Source: a virus
Taxonomy: Duplodnaviria; Heunggongvirae; Uroviricota; Caudoviricetes
Length of the DNA: 12,549 nucleotides
IMG/VR virus record: IMGVR_UViG_2585427728_000006
Location: 1 to 12,549 of that record
Direction: 5' to 3' (one strand)
Of the stretch, positions 1 to 12,549 are shown piece after piece. The notes beneath the pieces are model-generated. The model was not told the origin of the DNA. It worked only from the letters and a program-made list of their open reading frames with translations, and did no database searches. The translations under genes were made by a program, and so were the position numbers. Position 1 is the first letter of the stretch. Every line of letters begins with the position of its first letter.

Positions 1-1362
1 ATGTTTAAACCGGAACTCCTTTCCCCGGCGGGAACGCTGAAAAATATGCGTTACGCTTTCGCTTATGGCGCAGATGCTGTTTATGCGGGCCAGCCGCGTT
101 ACTCCCTGCGTGTGCGCAACAACGAATTCAACCACGAAAATCTTCAGCTCGGCATCAATGAAGCCCACGCGCTGGGGAAAAAGTTTTATGTCGTGGTCAA
201 CATTGCACCGCACAACGCCAAGCTGAAAACCTTTATCCGTGACCTGAAACCGGTGGTGGAAATGGGGCCGGATGCGCTGATTATGTCCGATCCAGGGCTG
301 ATTATGCTGGTGCGTGAGCACTTCCCTGAAATGCCGATCCACCTCTCGGTGCAGGCTAACGCCGTAAACTGGGCGACGGTGAAATTCTGGCAGCAAATGG
401 GCCTGACCCGCGTGATCCTCTCTCGCGAGCTGTCGCTGGAAGAGATTGAAGAGATCCGCAATCAGGTGCCGGATATGGAGATCGAGATCTTCGTTCACGG
501 CGCACTGTGCATGGCCTACTCCGGTCGCTGCCTGCTCTCTGGCTATATCAACAAGCGCGATCCGAACCAGGGTACCTGCACCAACGCCTGCCGCTGGGAG
601 TACAACGTCCAGGAAGGGAAAGAAGATGACGTTGGCAACATCGTACACAAGTACGAGCCGATTCCGGTGCAAAATGTTGAGCCGACGCTGGGTATCGGCG
701 CGCCAACCGACAAAGTGTTTATGATCGAAGAAGCCCAGCGTCCGGGCGAGTATATGACCGCGTTTGAAGATGAGCACGGCACTTACATCATGAACTCGAA
801 AGATCTGCGCGCCATCGCCCATGTAGAACGCCTGACCAAAATGGGCGTGCATTCGCTGAAAATCGAAGGCCGTACTAAATCTTTCTACTATTGCGCACGC
901 ACCGCACAGGTTTACCGTAAAGCTATCGATGACGCCGCTGCGGGCAAACCGTTCGATACCAGCCTGCTGGAAACTCTGGAAGGTCTGGCGCATCGTGGCT
1001 ATACCGAAGGTTTCCTGCGTCGTCATACTCACGACGATTATCAGAACTACGAATACGGTTATTCAGTTTCTGACCGCCAGCAGTTTGTTGGTGAGTTTAC
1101 CGGTGAGCGCAAGGGGGACCTCGCGGCGGTAGCGGTGAAAAATAAATTCTCCGTTGGCGACAGCCTTGAGCTGATGACGCCGCAAGGCAACATTAACTTT
1201 ACCCTTGAGCACATGGAAAACGCCAAAGGTGAAGCGATGCCGGTCGCACCAGGCGATGGTTATACTGTGTGGCTCCCGGTCCCGCAGGATCTTGAGCTCA
1301 ATTACGCTCTGCTGATGCGTAATTTCTCCGGGGAAACCACGCGTAACCCACACGGTAAGTGA
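1..1362 (+). CDS. yegQ: U32-family peptidase-like protein YegQ (tRNA hydroxylation protein TrhP)
   Basis: Full-length 453-aa ORF starting MFKPELLSPAGT, matching recalled E. coli YegQ; stop TGA at 1360-1362; followed by cyaR as in E. coli. Confidence 0.9.
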   Translation: MFKPELLSPAGTLKNMRYAFAYGADAVYAGQPRYSLRVRNNEFNHENLQLGINEAHALGKKFYVVVNIAPHNAKLKTFIRDLKPVVEMGPDALIMSDPGLIMLVREHFPEMPIHLSVQANAVNWATVKFWQQMGLTRVILSRELSLEEIEEIRNQVPDMEIEIFVHGALCMAYSGRCLLSGYINKRDPNQGTCTNACRWEYNVQEGKEDDVGNIVHKYEPIPVQNVEPTLGIGAPTDKVFMIEEAQRPGEYMTAFEDEHGTYIMNSKDLRAIAHVERLTKMGVHSLKIEGRTKSFYYCARTAQVYRKAIDDAAAGKPFDTSLLETLEGLAHRGYTEGFLRRHTHDDYQNYEYGYSVSDRQQFVGEFTGERKGDLAAVAVKNKFSVGDSLELMTPQGNINFTLEHMENAKGEAMPVAPGDGYTVWLPVPQDLELNYALLMRNFSGETTRNPHGK

Positions 1363-1392
1363 TTAATTTCGATTATTTTTCCCGGATGGAAA

Positions 1393-1446
1393 ATTCTTAG
1401 AAACCGATCACATACAGCTGCATTTATTAAGGTTATCATCCGTTTC
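1393..1446 (+). promoter_or_regulatory. cyaR promoter region with putative CRP site (TTAGA-N6-TCACA, 1396-1411) and -10-like TATCAT (1434-1439)
   Basis: Half-site TCACA is perfect, left half-site is degenerate; spacing to the inferred cyaR 5' end fits a CRP-activated promoter. cyaR is known to be CRP-dependent. Exact positions not verified. Confidence 0.45.
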
Positions 1447-1533
1447 GCTGAAAAACATAACCCATAAAATGCTAGCTGTACCAGGAACCACCTCCTTAGC
1501 CTGTGTAATCTCCCTTACACGGGCTTATTTTTT
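1447..1533 (+). ncRNA. cyaR: Hfq-dependent small RNA CyaR (RyeE)
   Basis: Sequence GCTGAAAAACATAACCCATAAAATGCTAGCTGTACCAGGAACCACCTCCTTAGCCTGTGTAATCTCCCTTACACGGGCTTATTTTTT matches recalled cyaR; lies between yegQ and ogr as in E. coli K-12; ends in a U-tract. Confidence 0.85.
1507..1533. repeat. P2-type att core, left copy (prophage/chromosome junction next to ogr)
   Basis: 27-bp AATCTCCCTTACACGGGCTTATTTTTT, identical to 12046-12072; its reverse complement AAAAAATAAGCCCGTGTAAGGGAGATT matches the recalled P2 att core; overlaps the cyaR 3' end. Confidence 0.85.
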
Positions 1534-1595
1534 ACGTACAACAAATTGAAATAAAAGGATTTATTTCTGGTCACGTCCACACATTGACCACATCG

Positions 1596-1630
1596 ACAAA
1601 AAAGCCCCTCGACTGAGGGGCTTTCTGTTT
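1596..1630 (-). terminator. Rho-independent terminator downstream of ogr (hairpin usable on both strands)
   Basis: Stem GCCCCTC (1604-1610) / GAGGGGC (1615-1621) with 4-nt loop, flanked by an A-run upstream and T-rich run downstream, so a T-tract follows the hairpin on either strand. Confidence 0.55.
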
Positions 1631-1634
1631 GTAA

Positions 1635-1853
1635 TTACATCCACATAATTTGCTGCCCTGACGGCAAGGGGTGCGGCCTCACGGCGTGGACTTCTCCCGG
1701 CTTCACGATGTATCGCTGTACCGACTCATAAGTGATGAACGTGGCGCTGCAATTCACGTTCTGACACTGGTGATAACGCTCTTTTGTCGTGTCAGTGATA
1801 TAGCGACTTGTACGCGCATGTGCGGCATGCTGGCATAAAGGACAATGAAACAT
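1635..1853 (-). CDS. ogr: P2-type late gene transcriptional activator Ogr (zinc-finger)
   Basis: 72-aa product from ATG at 1853: MFHCPLCQHAAHARTSRYITDTTKERYHQCQNVNCSATFITYESVQRYIV..., matching recalled P2 Ogr/OgrK with the C-x2-C...C-x4-C zinc motif. The 93-aa ORF-track version is an upstream extension. Confidence 0.9.
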   Translation of the reverse strand: MFHCPLCQHAAHARTSRYITDTTKERYHQCQNVNCSATFITYESVQRYIVKPGEVHAVRPHPLPSGQQIMWM

Positions 1854-1934
1854 CGCGAGCACCTCTTCCGGTTTTGTTGATGGTGCCATTTTAGTTAATT
1901 TACCCTTATAAAACAAACAGATAAAAACAAAATA

Positions 1935-2189
1935 TTACTCATCACCTTCTGTTTCGTACTCCACATCAGAAAGCCTGACCTCAAGCTCTAAGGACGTCGT
2001 GAAGCCGCTGTTATTCAGAAAATGTGTCACTTTAGTGATTGTCCAGTCCTGCTCGTCTATGACGCGCTTAAAGCCTGACACTTTAACCGGTGTTTCCGTG
2101 TAAATATCTGCCCGACCAGTAGCCAGGCTGATGGAGAACTCCGCTACACCCCGTTGCAGCTTATCCCACTTCGCCTGAGCGGCACGCAT
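1935..2189 (-). pseudogene. C-terminal fragment of P2 gpD-like tail protein (yegZ-like remnant)
   Basis: 84-aa ORF ending ...TTSLELEVRLSDVEYETEGDE resembles the C-terminus of P2 gpD (about 387 aa in P2). Same frame stays open upstream to about 2312 with no plausible start, so the N-terminal roughly 70 percent of D is missing. Confidence 0.75.
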
Positions 2190-3135
2190 GGCCTGTGCTT
2201 TCGTGGCATATACCGTGGTCAGGGCAAAAACGTTATCAGCCTCACCGGCCAGATGGTATGAGCCACCGGTCAGCTTTACCGGTCTGGCAAAAAGCCTGCG
2301 TGCTGCCGTGCATCACAGCTCACCGATTTACGTCAAACGTAATATTCTGGCCTCGACATTTATCCCGCATCCGTGGCTTTCCCAGCAGGATTTCAGCCGC
2401 TTTGCGCTGGATTTTCTGGTGTTCGGTAATGCGTTTCTGGAAAAGCGTTACAGCACCACCGGTAAGGTCATCAGACTGGAACCCTCACCGGCAAAATATC
2501 CCCGCCGTGGCGTGGAGGAGAATGTTTACTGGTGGGTGCCGTCCTTCAACGAGCCGACACCTTTCGCGCCCGGCTCCGTGTTTCATCTGCTGGAGCCGGA
2601 TATTAATCAGGAGCTGTACGGCATGCCGGAATATCTCAGCGCCCTTAACTCTGCCTGGCTGAATGAGTCAGCCACGCTGTTCCGCCGCAAGTATTACGAA
2701 AACGGCGCACATGCCGGATACATCATGTACGTCACTGATGCCGTGCAGGATCGCAACGATATCGAAATGCTTCGCGAAAACATGGTCAAGTCGAAAGGCC
2801 GCAACAACTTTAAAAATCTGTTTCTCTATGCCCCGCAGGGAAAAGCCGACGGCATTAAAATTATCCCGCTCAGTGAAGTGGCAACGAAGGACGATTTTTT
2901 TAATATCAAAAAAGCCAGCGCCGCTGACCTGCTGGACGCGCACCGCATCCCCTTTCAGTTGATGGGCGGCAAGCCGGAGAACGTCGGGTCGCTGGGTGAT
3001 ATTGAGAAAGTGGCAAAGGTCTTTGTCCGCAATGAGCTTATCCCGTTACAGGACAGGATCCGCGAGATAAACGGCTGGCTCGGTCAGGAGGTCATCCGCT
3101 TTAAAAACTACTCACTGGACACTGACAACGGCTGA
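2188..3135 (+). pseudogene. N-terminally truncated P2-like portal protein gpQ
   Basis: ORF product resembles P2-family portal protein and ends next to cos, as Q does in P2. Frame opens only at 2179 and the first ~40 codons overlap the D fragment on the opposite strand, so the genuine Q part probably begins near 2314 and lacks its N-terminus (P2 Q is about 344 aa). No P gene or late promoter upstream. Confidence 0.75.
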
Positions 3136-3140
3136 ACATC

Positions 3141-3162
3141 GCCGCCTGCGGGCGGCTTTTTT
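3141..3162 (+). terminator. Rho-independent terminator after Q remnant
   Basis: GC hairpin GCCGCC-TGCG-GGCGGC (3141-3156) followed by TTTTTT (3157-3162), 5 nt after the Q stop codon. Confidence 0.6.
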
Positions 3163-3304
3163 ACACCCAGTCATCACGCCCTCACACGCTCACCACCGCA
3201 CAAAACAGCCCGCAGACACAGCAACGCCCCGGCGCAAAATCTAAACGCCGCCACGACGCGCTCAGACGCTGAAAAAATAAAATCAGCACCCCCGCCAGCG
3301 CGCA

Positions 3305-3323
3305 GTGCTTTCCCCGCCTCGCC
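3305..3323 (-). other. P2-type cos site (19-nt cohesive-end sequence)
   Basis: GTGCTTTCCCCGCCTCGCC is the reverse complement of GGCGAGGCGGGGAAAGCAC, the recalled P2 cohesive end; adjacent sequence toward Q also resembles the P2 left end. Confidence 0.75.
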
Positions 3324-3653
3324 CGCCCGCTTCATGGGGCGGTTTTGATGCAATACATGAGCATCGTAATGCCATATCGTGACAGGATTATAGAACATGA
3401 AGGTATACTAACTTACACATGCAAAAAAACGCACACTCAGGCATTCTCTTTGGAATACAATATGGTAAAAATATGATCATTTGAAGCTGCATATCCGTGC
3501 AGATTGAAATCAATGATGCTGCCCCTTCGTTAAGACAGCCAGGCCGCAATCTCTTGAGCTCAAGTGGACATCTAAGACAGAAAAACAATTTAAAGGCAAA
3601 GTTTTCGTAATGGTATCTTTGTCACAGCACACGCTAAAAAGGAACTAAACCTC

Positions 3654-4718
3654 ATGAGCACTCAGCAAGTCCTCAACATCCCTACAGCCGTATCGCAAGC
3701 GACCATCGAAAAATGGTTGAAAGGACTGGAACAGACAACGGAATTAGCCTTTTTTCGCCGTGTTGGCGGGCGGCATGGCTTCAATGTTACGAGCCGCTGG
3801 GCAAGTACATTGGATAACTTGAATAAAACTCTGAATGACCCATCGAAGCAAGGTACGCCTGCAAACTTTTCAAATCTCCGTTTGATTACGTTAAAAATAA
3901 TCACTAGCGTAAACCATTATTATTCAATTGATGGTATTAAATCAGGAACCATTAATTTAATACCAAATATAATCAACTACCCTCACCTCGATAAAACATT
4001 TAGCTCAGTATTTCCAATAAAACTTGATGATAATACAGGACTTCCTTCGACTCCTGGGCATTTCATTACTTCCATCGAAAAAATGGGGGATGGTATTGCT
4101 GTAATATATTCCTATATTATTTTAAGAAAAATCCAAGGAAGGAGTAAGCTACGTAGCAATCAATATCCAGAGCAGTACTTCAACACTGTTTTCATCCCTA
4201 ATGATTTAAGCCGTATAGAATATCGGGTTGATAAATCACTAGGTAAAAGAGCGTCTGAAAAAGCGATGGCAGATTTGCGCGCAAAATTTAATGAATTACT
4301 CGTGGAACTTAATATTAAGTTAGCTGTTGAAACTATAAATTTCTACAAAGCAATTTCCAATATTTACCTTGACAAACAATATGGAAGACTTGTTCAGGTT
4401 AATTTCCTTGATCCAAATGGAGATGAGGATGCTGTTCTTCGTTGCAGAACAGACCCCAATTATGATGCCCGTTATCGCGAGGTTGTATCTAAAACTCAGA
4501 ACGGAACACCTCGCTCATTGACCCTTGAAGTTTCTGGCGTTGCAGTGCGATTAGATAGTAAAGTTGCAAACGAAACAATTTCAAATGAAATTGGTTTTGA
4601 ACCCAGCAAAACTGATTGGTCTACAAACAAATTTTGTGGGGATTTTTATTTTACACAAACAGCAGATCATCAGGTGCATTATGGGGTGATAAATGATTTA
4701 CTCACAAGAGCGAAATAA
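3654..4718 (+). CDS. Hypothetical protein, cargo gene 1 of cos-proximal three-gene operon (354 aa, no recognisable family)
   Basis: ATG at 3654 with AAGGA about 10 nt upstream; long ORF in a strongly AT-rich block; first gene of a co-directional tightly packed trio. No Walker A, RT, TIR or Old-like motifs seen. Confidence 0.75.
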   Translation: MSTQQVLNIPTAVSQATIEKWLKGLEQTTELAFFRRVGGRHGFNVTSRWASTLDNLNKTLNDPSKQGTPANFSNLRLITLKIITSVNHYYSIDGIKSGTINLIPNIINYPHLDKTFSSVFPIKLDDNTGLPSTPGHFITSIEKMGDGIAVIYSYIILRKIQGRSKLRSNQYPEQYFNTVFIPNDLSRIEYRVDKSLGKRASEKAMADLRAKFNELLVELNIKLAVETINFYKAISNIYLDKQYGRLVQVNFLDPNGDEDAVLRCRTDPNYDARYREVVSKTQNGTPRSLTLEVSGVAVRLDSKVANETISNEIGFEPSKTDWSTNKFCGDFYFTQTADHQVHYGVINDLLTRAK

Positions 4719-5127
4719 AAAAATGCGCTCATTAGTGTATAAACAAAGAGTACTCCTGGAGAATGCCGGAAGCTCTTCTGTTTTCATAAATAATGATTCT
4801 CACATATATTATACAAATTTACTAGAATATGTAGAGGGTGATCTTGATCGTAATATTTATACAATCCCAGTATTACGAAAAGCCATAAAAACTGACAATT
4901 ATGAACATTTGCTACGAGTTGTTCAATTTTTTAGTAGCAATACCTCTTGTTTATTTAACGTTAAATATTGCTACGAACTAGAAAACATGGAGTTTGAGGA
5001 CATACAAGCTGATGAATATACCAACTATATATTAAACGGAGTTGAACCTGTAACTGCCAATGGTTCTGAAATTGAAGACTTCAATCCAAAATATCTTTCA
5101 TTTTATTGCATAATAAACCTGGATTGA
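4693..5127 (+). CDS. Hypothetical small acidic protein, cargo gene 2 (144 aa; alternative start at 4723 gives 134 aa)
   Basis: ATG at 4693 preceded by GGGGTG; overlaps gene 1 by 26 nt; stop TGA 5125-5127 lies 5 nt before the gene 3 ATG. Asp/Glu-rich, no recognisable motif. Confidence 0.6.
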   Translation: MIYSQERNKKMRSLVYKQRVLLENAGSSSVFINNDSHIYYTNLLEYVEGDLDRNIYTIPVLRKAIKTDNYEHLLRVVQFFSSNTSCLFNVKYCYELENMEFEDIQADEYTNYILNGVEPVTANGSEIEDFNPKYLSFYCIINLD

Positions 5128-5132
5128 CTGTC

Positions 5133-5981
5133 ATGAACAAACAACAAATCACATGTGAGTTAGGCAAAAGGGTTCATTTTGAAGATGAAGCGAGTTTTAT
5201 TGAAACATTATACTCGGATATAGAAGTCATAATAAAACTAATGGAGCAATCTAGTGACAAGTATTATTGTGATGATGAAGATAAACTAAGCCATACAATT
5301 GTAGCCTCTCTTGTACACCTAGGTTACGATGCAACCGAACAAACAAAAAAAAATGGAAGTGTGGACATAACCGTTCGTCCGAAAAATGGAGGATATACAT
5401 GGATTGCTGAAGCAAAAATCGGATACGGGAACCAAAAAATATTCGAGGGGCTACTTCAGTTGCTTACTCGCTATGTTAAAAGAGATAATCATGCAGGCAT
5501 GGTTATCTATTATCAAAAATCAAAGTCATCTTATCATTTCAAACAATGGCTGAAATACATATACAACCATGAGTGGAAGGATTATTGTACAAAGAAAGGG
5601 TCATTAAAAAAAGCGACTCCGCTACTTTCTCATTTAAAAAGTACGGTTTGTCCGAAAGTCAAACAAGGCTGTTGTTATGCTGACATTGATGTCATCCAAC
5701 CTTCGACTGATGGTCTAAAACTTCGCTGCTTCTATATTGACGTGCATCATGACCCAATTGACAGTAGTGGTTTAAAGAATAAGTCAATCGCCTTTGGTCA
5801 AGCCCAAAATAGAATTAGAGATTTATATCACTTATGGAAGACAGGACAGTTCGACGGCAGTATGATAGATGAATTATTTGAAGAAATAAAAATATATCAT
5901 AGCAATGAACTTGACGAAGAATATGAAGATGAAGATGAAGATGAAGATGAAGATGAAGATTCGAATATAAACTCAAAATGA
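5133..5981 (+). CDS. Hypothetical protein with PD-(D/E)xK nuclease-like signature and poly-(Glu-Asp) C-terminal tail, cargo gene 3
   Basis: ATG at 5133 (the ORF-track start at 5106 is TTG). Contains GSVDITV...(14 aa)...WIAEAKIG, i.e. D78 and E93-x-K95, a spacing typical of PD-(D/E)xK cores; C-terminus EYEDEDEDEDEDEDSNINSK. Confidence 0.7.
   Translation: MNKQQITCELGKRVHFEDEASFIETLYSDIEVIIKLMEQSSDKYYCDDEDKLSHTIVASLVHLGYDATEQTKKNGSVDITVRPKNGGYTWIAEAKIGYGNQKIFEGLLQLLTRYVKRDNHAGMVIYYQKSKSSYHFKQWLKYIYNHEWKDYCTKKGSLKKATPLLSHLKSTVCPKVKQGCCYADIDVIQPSTDGLKLRCFYIDVHHDPIDSSGLKNKSIAFGQAQNRIRDLYHLWKTGQFDGSMIDELFEEIKIYHSNELDEEYEDEDEDEDEDEDSNINSK
5925..5960 (+). repeat. Perfect hexanucleotide tandem repeat (GAAGAT)x6 inside gene 3
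   Basis: Six exact tandem copies of GAAGAT, in frame, encoding (Glu-Asp)6. Confidence 0.95.
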
Positions 5982-5994
5982 ACACCAAGAATCA

Positions 5995-6028
5995 CCCCAT
6001 TAAGTTTAGACATCCTAACTTGATGGGG
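5995..6028. terminator. Putative hairpin between convergent cargo gene 3 and A
   Basis: CCCCATTAAG (5995-6004) pairs with CTTGATGGGG (6019-6028) with one G-U position and a 14-nt loop; no strong T-tract on either strand, so function is uncertain. Confidence 0.3.
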
Positions 6029-6116
6029 AATTGACTTTTAAGTCTGTAACCCTAGCCATCAAAAATAGATTCATTTTAAATAAAAATATATCCGTTACGC
6101 CCCAAAAAAAATTGAA

Positions 6117-8387
6117 TTAATTAGGAAAAACACTCCCAGTTGGAATTTTTTTAAATTTATATTTCCTCCCATCGAAACATACTGTCGCACCGCGTGCTAA
6201 TACCTGTGGTTCCCATTGATTCGGCGTAATACCCTCCTGAGCCAACTCGAATCTTATACGTGGCGTCTGTTCCCGTTCAGCTTTTGTCATTCGTCCTGAG
6301 GGCGCTATCTGATAAGGTTTTAATGGCTCACAGCTCTTTTGCTGGCGATTTGGTCGTGGCGCATCGTGTTTTAGTGCGCATCTGAGCCCCGTCACGACTT
6401 CAGGGTCATCCCAGCCGATAACCCCGCGCTCAATCAGATTCAACACCGCTGCTGCTTGCTCAGAAGGTATGGATGTCATAGCAGGATCGCCACCGCTAGT
6501 TAGCTTTCCACAGTTATTGACAGGACTCCGAGGCGCGGCGATGCCGCTTTTTAAAGTCAAAGGCTCAACGACCGGCACTTTCGGAACAATGCGCCAGTCC
6601 GTCGTTCTGGTGATATGAATATGACGCGCGCCGAGATGCGGCGCGTAAATGCCGACCACTCTCTCGACTTCTTCCTCGTACTCGTTAACTTCATCCGACG
6701 GACTACGGGCAACCCTGACAGTCTGACAATCGCGCGGAACATTTGCCCCACCCTGCGCGCTGATATACAACGCAAAATCACCACTGTCTGCGGCAGCGCG
6801 TGCAGCCTCGACGCGTTCGTCAAACTCATCAGCAATGCTGACGCCGCGAGGCAATTTGCGTAGTTCACGGTAAGCCCCCATTGTCGGCAGGCCAACCGTT
6901 TTAAATTGCGGAATGCGCCACGTTGACGCCCATGCGGTAACAGCCGCGGCAGTGTCTTTCAGCGGCCTGCCGGTATCGTTATCGAGCTGACCATCCAGTG
7001 CATAGCCATCGATGTTTTTTGAGATGTATTTCGCGATATATCCCGCAGCACCGCCCCGGTTAAGGTGTTTTGCCTGAAAACGGTTTCGCGCGGCTCCTCT
7101 TTCGTCACCATCCTCTTTGAGCGCATAGCGACGCATGATTTCGATAATCTGGTTACGCTGGCGTGGATTACAAAAAAGCATCATATGCCAGTGCGGCGTT
7201 CCGTCGTGGTGTGGCTCGACGACTCGCAAACCGTAGACCTGTAAATCATTATCCTTGAATGCCGTGCGCATCAGGCTCCAGATGCGGCAGAGATAACGCT
7301 GCGCATCCTTTGGATTAAATGCCTCATCATTCCAGCCGTGATTTAGCTGGACGGTTTTACTTTCGCCTTTTCCGACCTGACGTGTCGGGTGATACTTTGA
7401 CGGCGCGGTCAGCGTGATAAACATCCCCACATCACCCTCTGCGGCGGCGTAACGCTCAATACCGGCGATGGTGTTCATCAGCTCCATCCGGCGAATTTCT
7501 GGATTAGAAATACTGCCCATCACCTTACTGATAAGGTCGATGCGCTCGCCGGTTTCCCTGTTTTCAAGGTCACACGATTTAAGAAATTCCAGATTTGCCT
7601 GGCGGCGCGCACACACATCACGAATGGCATGTTTACTGGCATAAGGAGAACGGTCTTTATTCACCTCCCCGACAGCAATCAGTAACGCCTCATGCCAGCG
7701 CATACGCTGGCCTTTAAGCTGACTAATCCACCACTCATCGTTAAACAGACGGGCAATGGCAGAATATGCCTGCCTCGTGGTCATCTGTCCTTTACGGTAT
7801 TTTTTCCAGTAGAGAGGGGAAATATTGAAAGCACGTGCAGCGCCAGCAACATGACCATACAGATGCGCCTGCGCCTCATCTGTAAACAGCGATTCTTTCT
7901 CGCCATGTGCATCAACCCATGCATCGCAGAGTTCCTCATACATCATGAAAAGCTGCGATGAGATACGGGCGGCAAACTTTTTCAGCTCCTTGTCATTCAT
8001 CCCCGGCAGACGCGCATAATGGTCACGCTCTGCCAGAAACAGCAACGACGCGTCGGTGTTCATTTCATGGCGCTGATTCACGCGCTCAATACGCGGCCAT
8101 AAACGGCGCTGAAAAGTGGATGTGAGGAAATAAAATCCGTGCACCGGGCTTTTATTGCGCCGGATGTAGTCATAGCGTGAAGTAAACAGCGAGCGCAAAA
8201 AGTAAGGCAGGCGATTAATCGTGGATAAAACACCTTGCACCTGACGCATCTCGTCACGTGTAAGGGGTCTTTCGCGCCCGACGGCCTCGCGTGGCGCGTT
8301 CCATGCATAAGCACCGGTAAACGTCTCACCGGTGCCTGCGGCAAATGCTGACGGAGGGACAAAACGCCCGGAGGCTTTAACGGCCAT
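6117..8387 (-). CDS. A: P2-type replication initiation protein gpA (rolling-circle HUH endonuclease)
   Basis: 756 aa from ATG at 8387 (MAVKASGRFVPP...), closely matching recalled P2 gpA, including the HWHMMLF (HUH) and YIAKYISK motifs. The ORF-track start at 8429 is TTG. Confidence 0.9.
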   Translation of the reverse strand: MAVKASGRFVPPSAFAAGTGETFTGAYAWNAPREAVGRERPLTRDEMRQVQGVLSTINRLPYFLRSLFTSRYDYIRRNKSPVHGFYFLTSTFQRRLWPRIERVNQRHEMNTDASLLFLAERDHYARLPGMNDKELKKFAARISSQLFMMYEELCDAWVDAHGEKESLFTDEAQAHLYGHVAGAARAFNISPLYWKKYRKGQMTTRQAYSAIARLFNDEWWISQLKGQRMRWHEALLIAVGEVNKDRSPYASKHAIRDVCARRQANLEFLKSCDLENRETGERIDLISKVMGSISNPEIRRMELMNTIAGIERYAAAEGDVGMFITLTAPSKYHPTRQVGKGESKTVQLNHGWNDEAFNPKDAQRYLCRIWSLMRTAFKDNDLQVYGLRVVEPHHDGTPHWHMMLFCNPRQRNQIIEIMRRYALKEDGDERGAARNRFQAKHLNRGGAAGYIAKYISKNIDGYALDGQLDNDTGRPLKDTAAAVTAWASTWRIPQFKTVGLPTMGAYRELRKLPRGVSIADEFDERVEAARAAADSGDFALYISAQGGANVPRDCQTVRVARSPSDEVNEYEEEVERVVGIYAPHLGARHIHITRTTDWRIVPKVPVVEPLTLKSGIAAPRSPVNNCGKLTSGGDPAMTSIPSEQAAAVLNLIERGVIGWDDPEVVTGLRCALKHDAPRPNRQQKSCEPLKPYQIAPSGRMTKAEREQTPRIRFELAQEGITPNQWEPQVLARGATVCFDGRKYKFKKIPTGSVFPN

Positions 8388-8652
8388 ATGAGCCAAAAGC
8401 CTCTGAACAACGCTTGCTGAGTTGCTCAACCTGCGCGTTTAAATCAGCAAAAGACTTTGCGCTTCCGGTCAGAATATCGTGATGCATCAGGCCGGAAACA
8501 AGCTGGCTTAATTTCGGATAATAACCAACCACCGCCAGCCATTCCTGACCGGCGTTTTTACCGCTTTCCGCTCTCTTTTTCTCGTGGAGAATAAACTGAA
8601 AGCTGTCACTGGTAACGACATAACGTTCGCCAATTTCAATACGAATACTCAT
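8377..8652 (-). CDS. P2 early-operon hypothetical protein (position of P2 orf83)
   Basis: 91-aa ORF; its ATG (8650-8652) overlaps the stop of the upstream gene, and its own stop overlaps the start of A; position between B and A as in P2. Confidence 0.7.
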   Translation of the reverse strand: MSIRIEIGERYVVTSDSFQFILHEKKRAESGKNAGQEWLAVVGYYPKLSQLVSGLMHHDILTGSAKSFADLNAQVEQLSKRCSEAFGSYGR

Positions 8653-8873
8653 GCCGTTCTCCGGTAATGTTTGTTTTTTGCTTCAAAGACTGACTGGCAG
8701 GAAACACAACGCGTGGCTGACGGATAAGCCGCACGACGGGCAGCAGGTATTGGCGCGTCACACTCTTCGCAAACCAGCGCAGAAGCACCGCAATGTTTTA
8801 CCCTTGCCGCGTTAATCTGACGCTCCAGTAATTCAGCCTGTTGTTCCTGAATAAAATCTACGTTGTCCGGCAT
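8649..8873 (-). CDS. TraR/DksA-family C4 zinc-finger protein (position of P2 orf82)
   Basis: 74-aa ORF with C-x2-C-x17-C-x2-C (CEECDAPIPAARRAAYPSATRCVSCQ); start overlaps the upstream stop (TAATG). Confidence 0.75.
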   Translation of the reverse strand: MPDNVDFIQEQQAELLERQINAARVKHCGASALVCEECDAPIPAARRAAYPSATRCVSCQSVFEAKNKHYRRTA

Positions 8874-9175
8874 TACCAGCTCCTTTTGTCGTTAAGTTTT
8901 TTAAATTCATCAGCGCAATAGCTGGCAATTTCTGTCGTTAATTTCGTCAGTTCATCCACGGAGGAGATTTGCTTGTGAAATACAGCGCGTTTAACAAGTA
9001 AATTGACCACATCAGACAGGAGATTTAATTCGTTCTGATAAATCGCGATAACAGACTCAGTTATTTCGCGTTTTTCTTTATCAAGACCAAGTTGAATAAG
9101 AGATAAATCGCCATTTTTCATAACGGTGATTTTTAAGGCGTTATTCAGTAATACAACTGAACGAGAACAGGACAT
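8873..9175 (-). CDS. P2 early-operon hypothetical protein (position of P2 orf81)
   Basis: 100 aa from ATG at 9175, which overlaps the stop of the upstream gene (TGATG); the 9178 start in the ORF track is TTG. Confidence 0.65.
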   Translation of the reverse strand: MSCSRSVVLLNNALKITVMKNGDLSLIQLGLDKEKREITESVIAIYQNELNLLSDVVNLLVKRAVFHKQISSVDELTKLTTEIASYCADEFKKLNDKRSW

Positions 9176-9399
9176 CAAAGCACCTCCCCGCGAGACAATC
9201 CGATATTGTGAAATTTTTCCGACTCCTGACTGAGCAGCTCGACTATCTCCACGCGGGATAACTCCGCCTTTGTGATGTGGCGAATCATGGCGTCAAGATG
9301 AGAAGAAAAGCGCGTCGCTGCGTCGGCCTGTGCTTCGGTTCTGGCCTGTTGCAGCAGTAATGCGTATTTACCGCACTGATTTTCAGAAACTGTATGCAT
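9175..9399 (-). CDS. P2 early-operon hypothetical protein (position of P2 orf80)
   Basis: 74 aa from ATG at 9399 (MHTVSEN...) with GGAGAAAG upstream; the longer ORF-track version starts at a TTG. Confidence 0.65.
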
Positions 9400-9462
9400 G
9401 ACTTTCTCCAGGCAAAAAGAAGCCCCGCACAATTAAGTGCGTTAAAAACTCTGGTTAATTAC

Positions 9463-9963
9463 TTAATGCAGATATTGCTCTGGTTTTACCGACGTCAGAA
9501 TTGTCGGTGCATACTCAAACAGGCTGAATAATTCACGTAATGCACGGAATAAAGCATCACGCCAGTAACATGATTCTTCATTAATTCGCCAGTATGGCTG
9601 GTTGAATTCTTTTTCAGTCAATCCGGCATGCATAAATAAAGTACGACGCTGACTGACTGTTAAAAAACTAATATATGCATACTCACTTGCGCCAACCTGA
9701 CGGCGTTTGGAGAATGCCCCACGCAATTCATCAATTGCACAAACCAGCCGTTCACGTTCGACGTCGTTCATTTCTTCAAAACGCATCGTTGCGTGACGCT
9801 GTTTTAACTGCGCATGGAAGCAAACCGTTAGCCGTTCGCGTTCCATCATCTGATTATAATAATCGCATGTCTCCTGCCAGCGAGGGACGGCCAGATGCTT
9901 ACCAATTATCCGGCGCATAGCTGCTGGCTGTTTTTCAACGAGATTGAGCGTCATCACTGTCAT
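9463..9963 (-). CDS. B: P2-type replication protein gpB (helicase-loader-like)
   Basis: 166 aa, MTVMTLNLVEKQPAAMRRIIGKHLAVPRWQ..., matching recalled P2 gpB over its whole length. Confidence 0.9.
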   Translation of the reverse strand: MTVMTLNLVEKQPAAMRRIIGKHLAVPRWQETCDYYNQMMERERLTVCFHAQLKQRHATMRFEEMNDVERERLVCAIDELRGAFSKRRQVGASEYAYISFLTVSQRRTLFMHAGLTEKEFNQPYWRINEESCYWRDALFRALRELFSLFEYAPTILTSVKPEQYLH

Positions 9964-10130
9964 TTCCAGACCCTCCGGCTTTTCAGAAAGGTCAGAGTCT
10001 TTTTTAACGGACTCTGTTTTTTGGTGCGGATAATGATTCCCTTACGCCCCTTACCGTGGGTGATGGTGAAGTCAATCGCCCTGGGGCTTTCGTTACGCAA
10101 TAACTGAGCAATACAACGAGGCTCATTCAT
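9960..10130 (-). CDS. Small hypothetical protein (position of P2 orf78)
   Basis: 56 aa from ATG at 10130 with a perfect AAGGAG upstream; the ORF-track start at 10154 is GTG. Confidence 0.6.
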   Translation of the reverse strand: MNEPRCIAQLLRNESPRAIDFTITHGKGRKGIIIRTKKQSPLKKTLTFLKSRRVWK

Positions 10131-10140
10131 ACGGTTCTCC

Positions 10141-10416
10141 TTAACGTGGTTCACCGAGACCTAACCACATCAACCAGCCGTCACGAATCTCTTTAGGACG
10201 GCTTTCATAAGCCAGTTTTAGTCCGTTATTCCATGCCGGAAGGTATACCCAATATTCACCAGCACGCCCCGATACTGACTGAGGGTCAGTAATCTCAATA
10301 ACTGGTAATTTCCCTTTCTCAATCATGCCCCTTACAGCTCTTGGAGTTTTACCAATGAGTTTTGCAAACTCCTGATAAGGCACGGCATCAGTCACGCTTA
10401 CAAGCTGTCTATTCAT
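10141..10416 (-). CDS. cox: P2-type Cox protein (excisionase / repressor of Pc)
   Basis: 91 aa, ...PYQEFAKLIGK...GRAGEYWVYLPAWNNGLKLAYESRPKEIRDGWLMWLGLGEPR, matching recalled P2 Cox; first gene of the leftward early operon. Confidence 0.9.
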   Translation of the reverse strand: MNRQLVSVTDAVPYQEFAKLIGKTPRAVRGMIEKGKLPVIEITDPQSVSGRAGEYWVYLPAWNNGLKLAYESRPKEIRDGWLMWLGLGEPR

Positions 10417-10537
10417 CTGCTACGATTCTCCCTTAGTGCTTCTAATGGCTCCTAATGGCTAATTATTGCCTAAAAGGATAACTCCAGAAGCACAACATTT
10501 CACACTATCAGCAAGAAATTACGCAATCGGAGTAATT
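10417..10537. promoter_or_regulatory. Divergent cox / C control region (Pe/Pc promoters and operator) with tandem 10-bp direct repeats
   Basis: Intergenic region between divergent cox and C; TCTAATGGCT / CCTAATGGCT tandem repeats at 10441-10460 are candidate C-repressor half-sites. Exact promoter elements not assigned. Confidence 0.6.
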
Positions 10538-10837
10538 ATGTCAATAGACGTTTCGGAGAAGTTGAAGCTAATCCGTGAATCTGAAAGGTTAAACCGTAAA
10601 GAATTCAGTGAATTAACTGGTGTAGCCTACAGCTCACTTTCGAGCTATGAGAGCCGGTCAAAAAACGCTGGAGTTGAAGCCATAATGAAGGTCTTACAAC
10701 ATCCCAGATTTACTAAATATACTTTGTGGTTCATGACTGATCAGGTAGCTCCAGAAGCCGGGCAAATTGCGCCCGCTCTCGCACACTTTGGGCAAAACGA
10801 AACAACGTCGCCCCACTCCGGTCAAAAGACTGGTTAA
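10538..10837 (+). CDS. C: P2-type immunity repressor C
   Basis: 99 aa from ATG at 10538; C-terminal half ...FTKYTLWFMTDQVAPEAGQIAPALAHFGQNETTSPHSGQKTG matches recalled P2 C; N-terminal DNA-binding part looks divergent from P2. Confidence 0.85.
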   Translation: MSIDVSEKLKLIRESERLNRKEFSELTGVAYSSLSSYESRSKNAGVEAIMKVLQHPRFTKYTLWFMTDQVAPEAGQIAPALAHFGQNETTSPHSGQKTG

Positions 10838-10952
10838 CAATTTATCGTGAATATATTCATCACAAGTGCCTACTATTGGTGGCTAAATTTCAGCCACCAC
10901 GAAAAAAGCGATTAGTAGTAGCAAAAAAAAGTACCACTCGGAGGGTTTTCTG

Positions 10953-11966
10953 ATGGCAATCAAAAAACTCGATGATGGTCGATATGAAGTGGACATCCGC
11001 CCTACTGGACGTAACGGAAAACGCATCCGTAGGAAGTTTGATAAGAAAAGCGAAGCTGTCGCTTTCGAAAAATACACGTTGTACAACCACCACAATAAAG
11101 AATGGCTATCAAAACCAACAGACAAACGACGTCTGTCGGAACTGACACAGATCTGGTGGGATTTAAAGGGTAAACACGAAGAGCATGGGAAATCTAATCT
11201 TGGAAAAATTGAAATCTTCACAAAAATAACGAATGACCCATGCGCATTTCAAATCACGAAATCCCTTATCAGCCAGTACTGCGCCACCCGAAGAAGTCAG
11301 GGTATTAAACCTTCGAGTATCAATCGTGATTTAACATGTATTAGCGGCATGTTTACAGCCCTGATTGAAGCGGAGTTATTCTTTGGTGAGCACCCTATCA
11401 GAGGGACAAAGAGGCTTAAGGAGGAAAAACCAGAAACAGGCTATCTCACACAGGAAGAAATTGCCTTACTGCTTGCAGCACTTGACGGCGACAACAAAAA
11501 GATTGCGATTCTTTGCCTGAGTACAGGAGCACGTTGGGGAGAAGCAGCTCGTTTAAAAGCAGAAAATATCATCCATAACCGCGTCACGTTTGTTAAAACG
11601 AAAACAAACAAACCACGCACCGTCCCGATCTCAGAGGCTGTTGCCAAAATGATCGCGGATAACAAACGAGGTTTTTTATTCCCTGATGCTGATTACCCTC
11701 GCTTCAGACGAACAATGAAAGCAATAAAACCGGATTTGCCAACGGGGCAAGCCACACATGCACTAAGGCACAGCTTTGCCACTCATTTCATGATTAATGG
11801 AGGAAGTATTATCACGCTACAACGGATACTAGGTCACACGCGGATTGAGCAAACTATGGTTTACGCTCATTTTGCGCCAGAGTACCTTCAGGACGCCATT
11901 TCTCTTAATCCGCTAAGAGGTGGTACTGAAGCCGAGAGTGTCCACACAGTGTCCACAGTAGAGTAA
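10953..11966 (+). CDS. int: P2-type integrase (tyrosine recombinase)
   Basis: 337 aa, GGAGGG SD upstream; C-terminal catalytic region HALRHSFATHF...LGHTRIEQTMVYAHF with the catalytic Tyr; downstream of C as in P2 and adjacent to the att core. Confidence 0.9.
   Translation: MAIKKLDDGRYEVDIRPTGRNGKRIRRKFDKKSEAVAFEKYTLYNHHNKEWLSKPTDKRRLSELTQIWWDLKGKHEEHGKSNLGKIEIFTKITNDPCAFQITKSLISQYCATRRSQGIKPSSINRDLTCISGMFTALIEAELFFGEHPIRGTKRLKEEKPETGYLTQEEIALLLAALDGDNKKIAILCLSTGARWGEAARLKAENIIHNRVTFVKTKTNKPRTVPISEAVAKMIADNKRGFLFPDADYPRFRRTMKAIKPDLPTGQATHALRHSFATHFMINGGSIITLQRILGHTRIEQTMVYAHFAPEYLQDAISLNPLRGGTEAESVHTVSTVE
11938..11957. repeat. Tandem direct repeats GTGTCCACA x2: putative Int arm-type binding sites
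   Basis: Two exact 9-bp copies 11 bp apart at the 3' end of int, about 90 bp from the att core; a related GTCCACACA occurs in the other arm at 1574-1583. Confidence 0.5.
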
Positions 11967-12045
11967 CGTTTAAGGGCTTTCAGTGGTAATTTATGCCGCT
12001 CAAACCCGCATTGTACCGTTGAAAGCCCCTACTGGTGACACCCTA

Positions 12046-12072
12046 AATCTCCCTTACACGGGCTTATTTTTT
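12046..12072. repeat. P2-type att core, right copy (prophage/chromosome junction next to int)
   Basis: 27-bp exact direct repeat of 1507-1533, followed by one extra T. Confidence 0.85.
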
Positions 12073-12136
12073 TATGCATAAGCCCTATCTCTGGTAACCG
12101 TCTTCCATTGACCACATCGATAGAATCCTCCTTCAT

Positions 12137-12169
12137 AGCACGATGCCTTTCACTTATCGGCATCGTGCT
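12137..12169. repeat. Perfect 11-bp inverted repeat (stem-loop) between att core and yegR
   Basis: AGCACGATGCC (12137-12147) and GGCATCGTGCT (12159-12169) with an 11-nt loop; no adjacent T-tract on either strand. Confidence 0.5.
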
Positions 12170-12231
12170 CCCACAGGTTCCGGCTACGCACAGCCAGAAC
12201 GCGCATATTTGACGCTTACCAAAAAATATTC

Positions 12232-12549
12232 TCACTCTCCACATTTGAATGTCAGACGAGCGACACCATGTAATCCTACACCTTCTGTCTTCAGCTCAAC
12301 TATTTGCATTTTTTTGCCCTGAGTAACACAGAAATGAGTTGCATCATTTTTTACTATATTTTCTGCACCAGATATTCTACCCCTGGCTAAAGAAGCTTCG
12401 GCTTCGGTGTAGTATTGGTTATCGAGTTTACGCTGAATATTACTTTTATATGCAAGACCAAATTTACCGATACTTGTCTCATCATTATGCACAGCACAAC
12501 CAGACATAATAAAAATACTAATTAATGATATAGCAGCTATCTTTTTCAT
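12232..12549 (-). CDS. yegR: Putative lipoprotein YegR
   Basis: Complete 105-aa ORF (start codon is the last 3 nt of the window) with signal peptide and lipobox (IFIMSGC); matches recalled E. coli YegR. Confidence 0.85.
   Translation of the reverse strand: MKKIAAISLISIFIMSGCAVHNDETSIGKFGLAYKSNIQRKLDNQYYTEAEASLARGRISGAENIVKNDATHFCVTQGKKMQIVELKTEGVGLHGVARLTFKCGE

Follow-up and report, generated by a model that had tools for sequence, protein, structure and literature searches.

The cos-proximal region of P2-like phages is a hotspot of accessory genes; in P2 it contains old and tin, and elsewhere it harbours numerous validated defence systems (Rousset et al., 2022; PMC9122126). Tables S5A/B of that study list, as P2-hotspot system 145 with 14 occurrences, exactly the three proteins that are the subject of this work, under the label 'DUF5939 | DpnII-MboI', the second half of which was assigned by HHpred (PMC9122126). 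We analysed them in a decayed P2-like prophage of Escherichia coli, represented by 12,549 nucleotides of viral DNA (positions 1 to 12,549 of IMG/VR record IMGVR_UViG_2585427728_000006, hereafter the window), where three genes on one strand, here called genes 1, 2 and 3, form a cassette of 2.3 kb (3654-5981) as overlapping or abutting open reading frames (ORFs). Our analysis indicates with high confidence that gene 3 encodes a genuine PD-(D/E)xK-fold protein with a functional-looking active site, and it makes it fairly probable that the trio constitutes a defence or exclusion module with a nuclease effector. DpnII-MboI is a restriction-endonuclease Pfam family and the published label is independent of the present analysis; the nuclease-like nature of one component had therefore already been noted in a supplementary table.

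Two further groups of described proteins are relevant to the cassette. RdgC is a ring-shaped, non-specific DNA-binding protein, and a fold of the same class has recently been recognised in λ RexA, the component of the Rex exclusion system that binds DNA, likewise non-specifically (PMC11077077). As with RexA/RexB, the trio is prophage-encoded and pairs an RdgC-fold protein, predicted in this case, with a separate effector; besides λ RexA, no precedent of phage exclusion for the RdgC fold was found. E. coli RdgC itself (PDB 2OWL) shares 9% identity with gene 1, which is longer by 50 residues, and it is a solitary chromosomal gene, whereas gene 1 resides on mobile elements and is tied to a nuclease-fold gene. 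For gene 3 the best structural matches are type II restriction enzymes of the PD-(D/E)xK fold (BamHI, BglII, BstYI and OkrAI), and not recombination exonucleases, at 10-12% identity and with no match at the sequence level. Unlike the BamHI group, gene 3 has no partner methyltransferase, carries about 130 extra C-terminal residues with an invariant PxDxS loop, and is obligately linked to two other genes. The third motif position, which is Glu in BamHI and Gln in BglII, is Lys in gene 3, as in the classical ExK.

Among catalogued defence candidates, the PADLOC model PDC-S54, of 410 positions, aligns through its positions 230-369 with residues 13-147 of gene 3, which comprise the nuclease core (E 2.8e-7), and it is also matched by 29 of 44 gene 3 relatives. 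PDC-S54 is a single-gene, uncharacterised candidate whose N-terminal 230 residues are different, and the match is partial, weak and confined to the domain. It was the only one obtained with the trio in PADLOC-DB v2, where genes 1 and 2 gave no match at E up to 1 and no known system was recognised. The 3HP system ('hp + hp + hp', pFR109) occupies the same P2 hotspot, consists of three genes without Pfam domains and was validated against phage P1 (PMC9122126). We considered it as the identity of the trio and rejected it, since the pFR109 proteins are entirely different from those of the trio in sequence and in length, and genes 1 and 2 have no match in PADLOC, which we assume to hold models of 3HP. 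The DUF5939 half of the published label could not be located either: genes 1-3 have no Pfam match under that label, it is mentioned in no paper text, and the first 399 residues of the 'DUF5939/Mrr_cat' protein from the P4 hotspot in the same survey gave no Pfam match. Searches of the literature on PDC-S54, on the WP accessions and on 'RdgC-like' together with phage returned nothing relevant beyond the RexA structure paper, and, as far as we found, neither the RdgC-like nature of the partner nor the invariance of the active site is described in the literature searched, and the same holds for the strict linkage of the trio and its wider distribution among phages.

Gene 3 and its putative active site

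The sequence-only reading of the window had proposed that gene 3 carries a PD-(D/E)xK-like catalytic signature, with Asp78 on the second strand and Glu93-x-Lys95 on the third strand of a restriction-endonuclease-like core. The motif, NGSVDITVRPKNGGYTWIAEAKI, was located exactly where it had been placed within the 282-residue translation of the intact ORF 5133-5981 on the plus strand; ORF calling extends the frame to an upstream TTG (5106), and the homologs start at ATG 5133. Taken by itself the motif is not beyond chance, since the loose pattern D-x(8-25)-[DE]-x-K matches four times in gene 3 and is present in 98.9% of its shuffles, and a stricter pattern with hydrophobic neighbours, found once, is present in 7.3% of them. 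Its statistical significance alone was thus rejected, and it is conservation and structure that give the motif its meaning.

Both of these lines of evidence were obtained. Fifty-six relatives of gene 3 were recovered from 5.8 billion proteins, and in a conservation alignment of 44 relatives with 25-82% identity, E49, G75, V77, D78, W90, E93, A94 and K95 are invariant in every sequence, as are E105, G106, Q109, R113, Y114, Y126, P208, D210 and S212. Glu49 is probably the fourth active-site residue, which would complete the usual E...D...ExK set. The AlphaFold model built from the homolog alignment (predicted local distance difference test, pLDDT, 86.3; predicted template modelling score, pTM, 0.81) shows an α-βββ-α-β core, as expected of the PD-(D/E)xK fold, composed of helix 49-62, strands 66-72, 76-82 and 90-96, helix 100-114 and strand 120-127. 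In this model E49 opens the first helix, D78 belongs to strand 76-82, and E93 and K95 belong to strand 90-96, which is the arrangement of the superfamily motif. The predicted secondary structure thus agrees with the strand assignment that had been guessed from the letters, the core whose absence would have spoken against the claim is present, and the signature holds with a fourth residue added to it.

At the level of sequence families the protein is less easily placed. No match at E up to 1 was obtained for gene 3 of the window with Mrr_cat (PF04471), PDDEXK_9 (PF08011) or DpnII-MboI (PF18742), nor any match with PDB sequences, and its relatives show sub-threshold Pfam matches to PDDEXK_9 in 11 of 44 cases (best E 0.013) and to Mrr_cat in seven of 44 (best E 0.0016). 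Gene 3 belongs to PHROG 9664, of unknown function, and can best be regarded as representing an unnamed family of the PD-(D/E)xK superfamily; it is a new member of a very large and well-known group. A cognate methyltransferase was found neither within the trio nor consistently beside it, whether in the window or at some 20 related loci, which does not correspond to a type II restriction-modification (R-M) system; the R-M neighbours that occur near the trio are occasional and unrelated. Because gene 3 holds the sole recognisable catalytic site of the cassette and its domain recurs in the defence candidate PDC-S54, the earlier suggestion that it would be the likely effector is a reasonable inference.

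Two features of the C-terminal half deserve mention. The Pro208-x-Asp210-x-Ser212 loop lies outside the canonical nuclease core and is kept also in the more distant variants from Shiga toxin (Stx) phages and Acinetobacter; it may be an extra active-site loop or a contact with a partner. The acidic Glu-Asp tail is variable: alleles otherwise 100% identical have five, six or eight Glu-Asp pairs, so that the underlying GAAGAT tract slips like a microsatellite, and distant gene 3 homologs have other acidic tails or none.

Partner genes, linkage and distribution

Gene 1 encodes a basic protein (isoelectric point, pI, 9.06) with a predicted RdgC-like three-dimensional fold, in which the motif F176-x3-F-I-P-x4-R187-x-E189-x-R191 is invariant, together with G244, R245, R273 and R299; five of its invariant residues are therefore arginines (R187, R191, R245, R273 and R299). 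We claim the likeness for the modelled fold and do not regard the protein as RdgC itself. The family is tiny: a profile search of 1.84 billion proteins yielded 27 clusters (50% identity), all of about 350 amino acids (aa), and no sign of the large RdgC family was seen among these clusters. Pfam RdgC was likewise recognised in none of 18 family members or seven remote relatives, and the gene 1 profile gave no signal against λ RexA by hhalign. Gene 2 is proposed to be an adaptor or inhibitor. Its first 26 nt (4693-4718) are shared with the 3' end of gene 1, and it stops 5 nt before gene 3. Some database entries place the start at ATG 4723 instead (134 aa); homologs conserve the N-terminal extension, which speaks for the long form and for translational coupling.

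The linkage of the three genes was followed with hidden Markov models of the three proteins on six-frame ORFs of every related locus. The order gene 1-gene 2-gene 3, with overlapping or abutting frames, was found in all loci that include upstream DNA and have a gene 3 of at least 29% identity, and these come from E. coli, Citrobacter, Serratia, Rahnella, Rouxiella, Atlantibacter, Shewanella, Pseudoalteromonas, Aeromonas, Photobacterium and Enterovibrio. The carriers (Table 1) include prophages, islands and a PM2-like tailless temperate Vibrio phage of 14.8 kb with the complete trio, which indicates that the cassette moves between very different virus lineages; this phage has a MazF-like gene at its opposite end. 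Seven Stx1a-converting phages carry a diverged trio (350, 130 and 221 aa) between antiterminator Q and stx1A, encoded on the opposite strand. Homology to gene 3 is clear for the third protein of this trio (hhalign probability 99.7%), which keeps the D...ExK and PxDxS residues, and the first two show weak collinear similarity to genes 1 and 2. Despite this spread the cassette is rare, being present in 2 of 5,426 complete E. coli genomes and in 10 of 185,579 species representatives. A nucleotide search of the phage collection gave no match, and the Vibrio and Stx1a phage relatives emerged at the protein level only.

The most distant relatives of gene 3, which keep the four active-site positions, are found in Acinetobacter sp. 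ANC 3832, where a trio of the same size lies beside a C5-methyltransferase gene (locus 4388-6573), and in an alphaproteobacterial metagenome-assembled genome of Hasllibacter, where a gene 3-like ORF stands on a high-GC contig without recognisable partners (locus 5776-6438). The gene 1 analogues of Acinetobacter and of the Stx phages have the size and position of gene 1, and their homology to it could not be established.

In the window itself, the trio occupies the cos-proximal hotspot between gpQ and gpA, the cargo of which varies among related prophages, and the order is that expected for this place: Q fragment, cos, trio and gpA. The island between cos and gpA has 36% GC, as opposed to 49% in the rest of the window. 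Taken together, it is rather likely that genes 1-3 are one horizontally acquired operon carried as hotspot cargo by a P2-like prophage.

Proposed mechanism and alternatives

We hypothesize that the three proteins work together against other phages. Gene 3 would be the executing component, a metal-dependent PD-(D/E)xK nuclease with the active site E49/D78/E93/K95. The arginine-rich, basic product of gene 1 would most likely bind or encircle DNA as a sensor or targeting subunit, and the small acidic product of gene 2 would most likely bridge or restrain the other two. The gene 1 clamp might sense, or load onto, invading or replicating phage DNA and license the nuclease through gene 2, and upon infection by another phage the complex would cut the DNA of the invader or that of the host, the latter as abortive infection, and thus protect the lysogen population. 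In this specific form, with an RdgC-fold clamp, an acidic adaptor and a BamHI-like PD-(D/E)xK nuclease making up a previously uncharacterised type of anti-phage system, the scheme is a tentative one, which we regard as possible yet doubtful. More broadly, the cassette is a good, not a startling, candidate defence system, that is, a candidate variant of the familiar 'sensor plus nuclease effector' theme in which the partner has an unusual fold.

Several observations weigh against such a role. The similarity of gene 1 to RdgC is structural only (Foldseek E 0.066), and comparison of its profile with E. coli RdgC by hhalign gave a probability of 0.1%. Genes 1 and 2 match no sequence model of PADLOC, Pfam, NCBIfam or PDB, and the gene 3 family reaches no Pfam gathering threshold. 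The cassette stands in a decayed prophage, and a consensus scan found only a weak promoter-like site. System 145 was catalogued without functional comment; it appears in Table S2 neither among the validated systems nor among those that tested negative, and Table S5 alone contains its protein sequences (PMC9122126).

Other roles can be proposed for the same genes. A toxin-antitoxin-like addiction module, with gene 3 as toxin, gene 2 as antitoxin, gene 1 as regulator and phage protection as a secondary effect, seems unlikely to us. The gene of the small acidic protein immediately precedes that of the nuclease, apparently with translational coupling, and the cassette is always on mobile elements beside integrases, as such a module would be; a conserved RdgC-fold partner of 350 aa is, however, atypical for toxin-antitoxin pairs, the three-gene linkage is strict across deep divergence, and the hotspot is enriched for defence cargo. 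An addiction module would also overlap the defence model rather than exclude it. A solitary or modification-dependent (type IV-like) restriction endonuclease, to which genes 1 and 2 would contribute specificity or accessory subunits, is a special case of defence that is computationally inseparable from it, and we consider it rather improbable: neither an NTPase domain nor a known reader domain for modified bases could be detected, and the Mrr_cat and DpnII-MboI models stay below threshold, although the cassette lacks a methyltransferase at every locus, as expected for type IV, and one homolog bears the UniRef name 'Restriction endonuclease'.

The structural matches of gene 3 to type II restriction enzymes also bear on a role in phage recombination, replication or repair, where an RdgC-like modulator of RecA or of DNA ends would act with a structure-specific nuclease or exonuclease on prophage DNA. 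RdgC does modulate RecA and replication restart (PMC11077077), and the cassette adjoins the replication gene gpA. This role is quite improbable all the same, given those matches, the foreign composition of the cassette, its place in an accessory hotspot rather than in an early operon, its rarity, both among genomes and in the number of gene 1 clusters, and its movement among phages of unrelated type and islands that are not phages, as a moron would behave and not a core function. Finally, a catalytically dead PD-(D/E)xK fold that only binds, its motif being a structural relic, is highly improbable even though inactive members of the fold are known, since none of the four canonical positions varies among the 44 sequences, the most distant of which have 25% identity, or in the variants from Stx phages, Acinetobacter and Hasllibacter, which is a signature of selection on catalysis.

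If the trio does act as a defence module and proves protective, it would add a defence system with an RdgC/RexA-fold, sensor-like component, and it would offer a second example of a poorly understood DNA-binding fold in phage exclusion, one that is amenable to biochemistry through the readout of a soluble nuclease. The cassette is small and self-contained and is found in medically relevant P2-like, lambdoid and Stx1a prophages; if the same role is true of the Stx1a-phage version, this could influence superinfection and thereby the ecology of Shiga-toxin phages. Should it have no anti-phage effect, it would amount to a further uncharacterised PD-(D/E)xK family among the cargo of prophages.

Prophage setting and features of the window

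The prophage is flanked by trhP (1-1362) and yegR (12232-12549) and has undergone heavy deletion: a C-terminal fragment of tail gene D, on the minus strand, meets the 5'-truncated gene Q at about position 2188, so that the prophage has lost its entire late region and keeps the defence-like island and the early region intact. The P2-type cos site was recognised by an exact match to GGCGAGGCGGGGAAAGCAC on the minus strand, and the stem-loop that follows the stop codon of gene 3 lies between gene 3 and gpA, which are convergent, and could plausibly serve as their terminator.

Table 1. Coordinates of the features of the window and of other loci carrying the trio. For the latter, positions are those of the respective locus.
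Feature	Position	Strand	Details
ogr	1635-1916	-	
gpD remnant	1935-2189	-	last 84 codons
Portal gene Q	2188-3135		truncated
cos site	3305-3323	-	P2-type, exact match
Promoter-like site	3450-3477	+	TTGGAA-16-TATGAT; consensus scan; weak, sole plus-strand candidate upstream of gene 1
Gene 1	3654-4718	+	354 aa, pI 9.1; predicted RdgC-like DNA-binding fold
Gene 2	4693-5127	+	144 aa, pI 4.7 (4.74); without recognisable domain
Gene 3	5133-5981	+	282 aa; PD-(D/E)xK domain at about residues 45-130, α/β C-terminal extension, acidic tail
Glu49 codon	5277-5279	+	invariant acidic residue, start of core helix 1
Asp78 to Glu93-Ala94-Lys95	5364-5417	+	reported motif, strands 2 and 3; GAC 5364-5366 (Asp78), GAA 5409-5411 (Glu93), AAA 5415-5417 (Lys95), numbered from ATG 5133
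Pro208-x-Asp210-x-Ser212 loop	5754-5768	+	invariant in the alignment; C-terminal half of gene 3
(GAAGAT)7 repeat	5919-5960	+	hexanucleotide repeat coding the (Glu-Asp)n tail
Stem-loop	5995-6028	+	just 3' of the gene 3 stop; minimum free energy -20.5 kcal/mol, z -3.6, reached by 0 of 200 shuffles
gpA	6117-8429	-	
Early genes, cox and C			retained in the window
int	10953-11966		
Lambdoid prophages			E. coli and Citrobacter; trio beside int
Island			Pseudoalteromonas
Island			Photobacterium; adjoining a type I R-M system
Integrase-flanked islands			one with an AspBHI/Mrr-like neighbour
Vibrio phage 10N.247.311.62_PE001	1351-3626		PQ189315, Vinavirales; PM2-like, tailless, temperate, 14.8 kb; trio next to integrase
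Phage Stx1_499	2493-4600		LC567825; example of the Stx1a-phage trio

At the same insertion site, E. coli ZH177 carries a less-deleted copy of the prophage, in which genes of the SIR2 family and with a PIN domain lie among the tail genes (locus positions 3156-5462); this looks like a second cargo site with likely defence genes.
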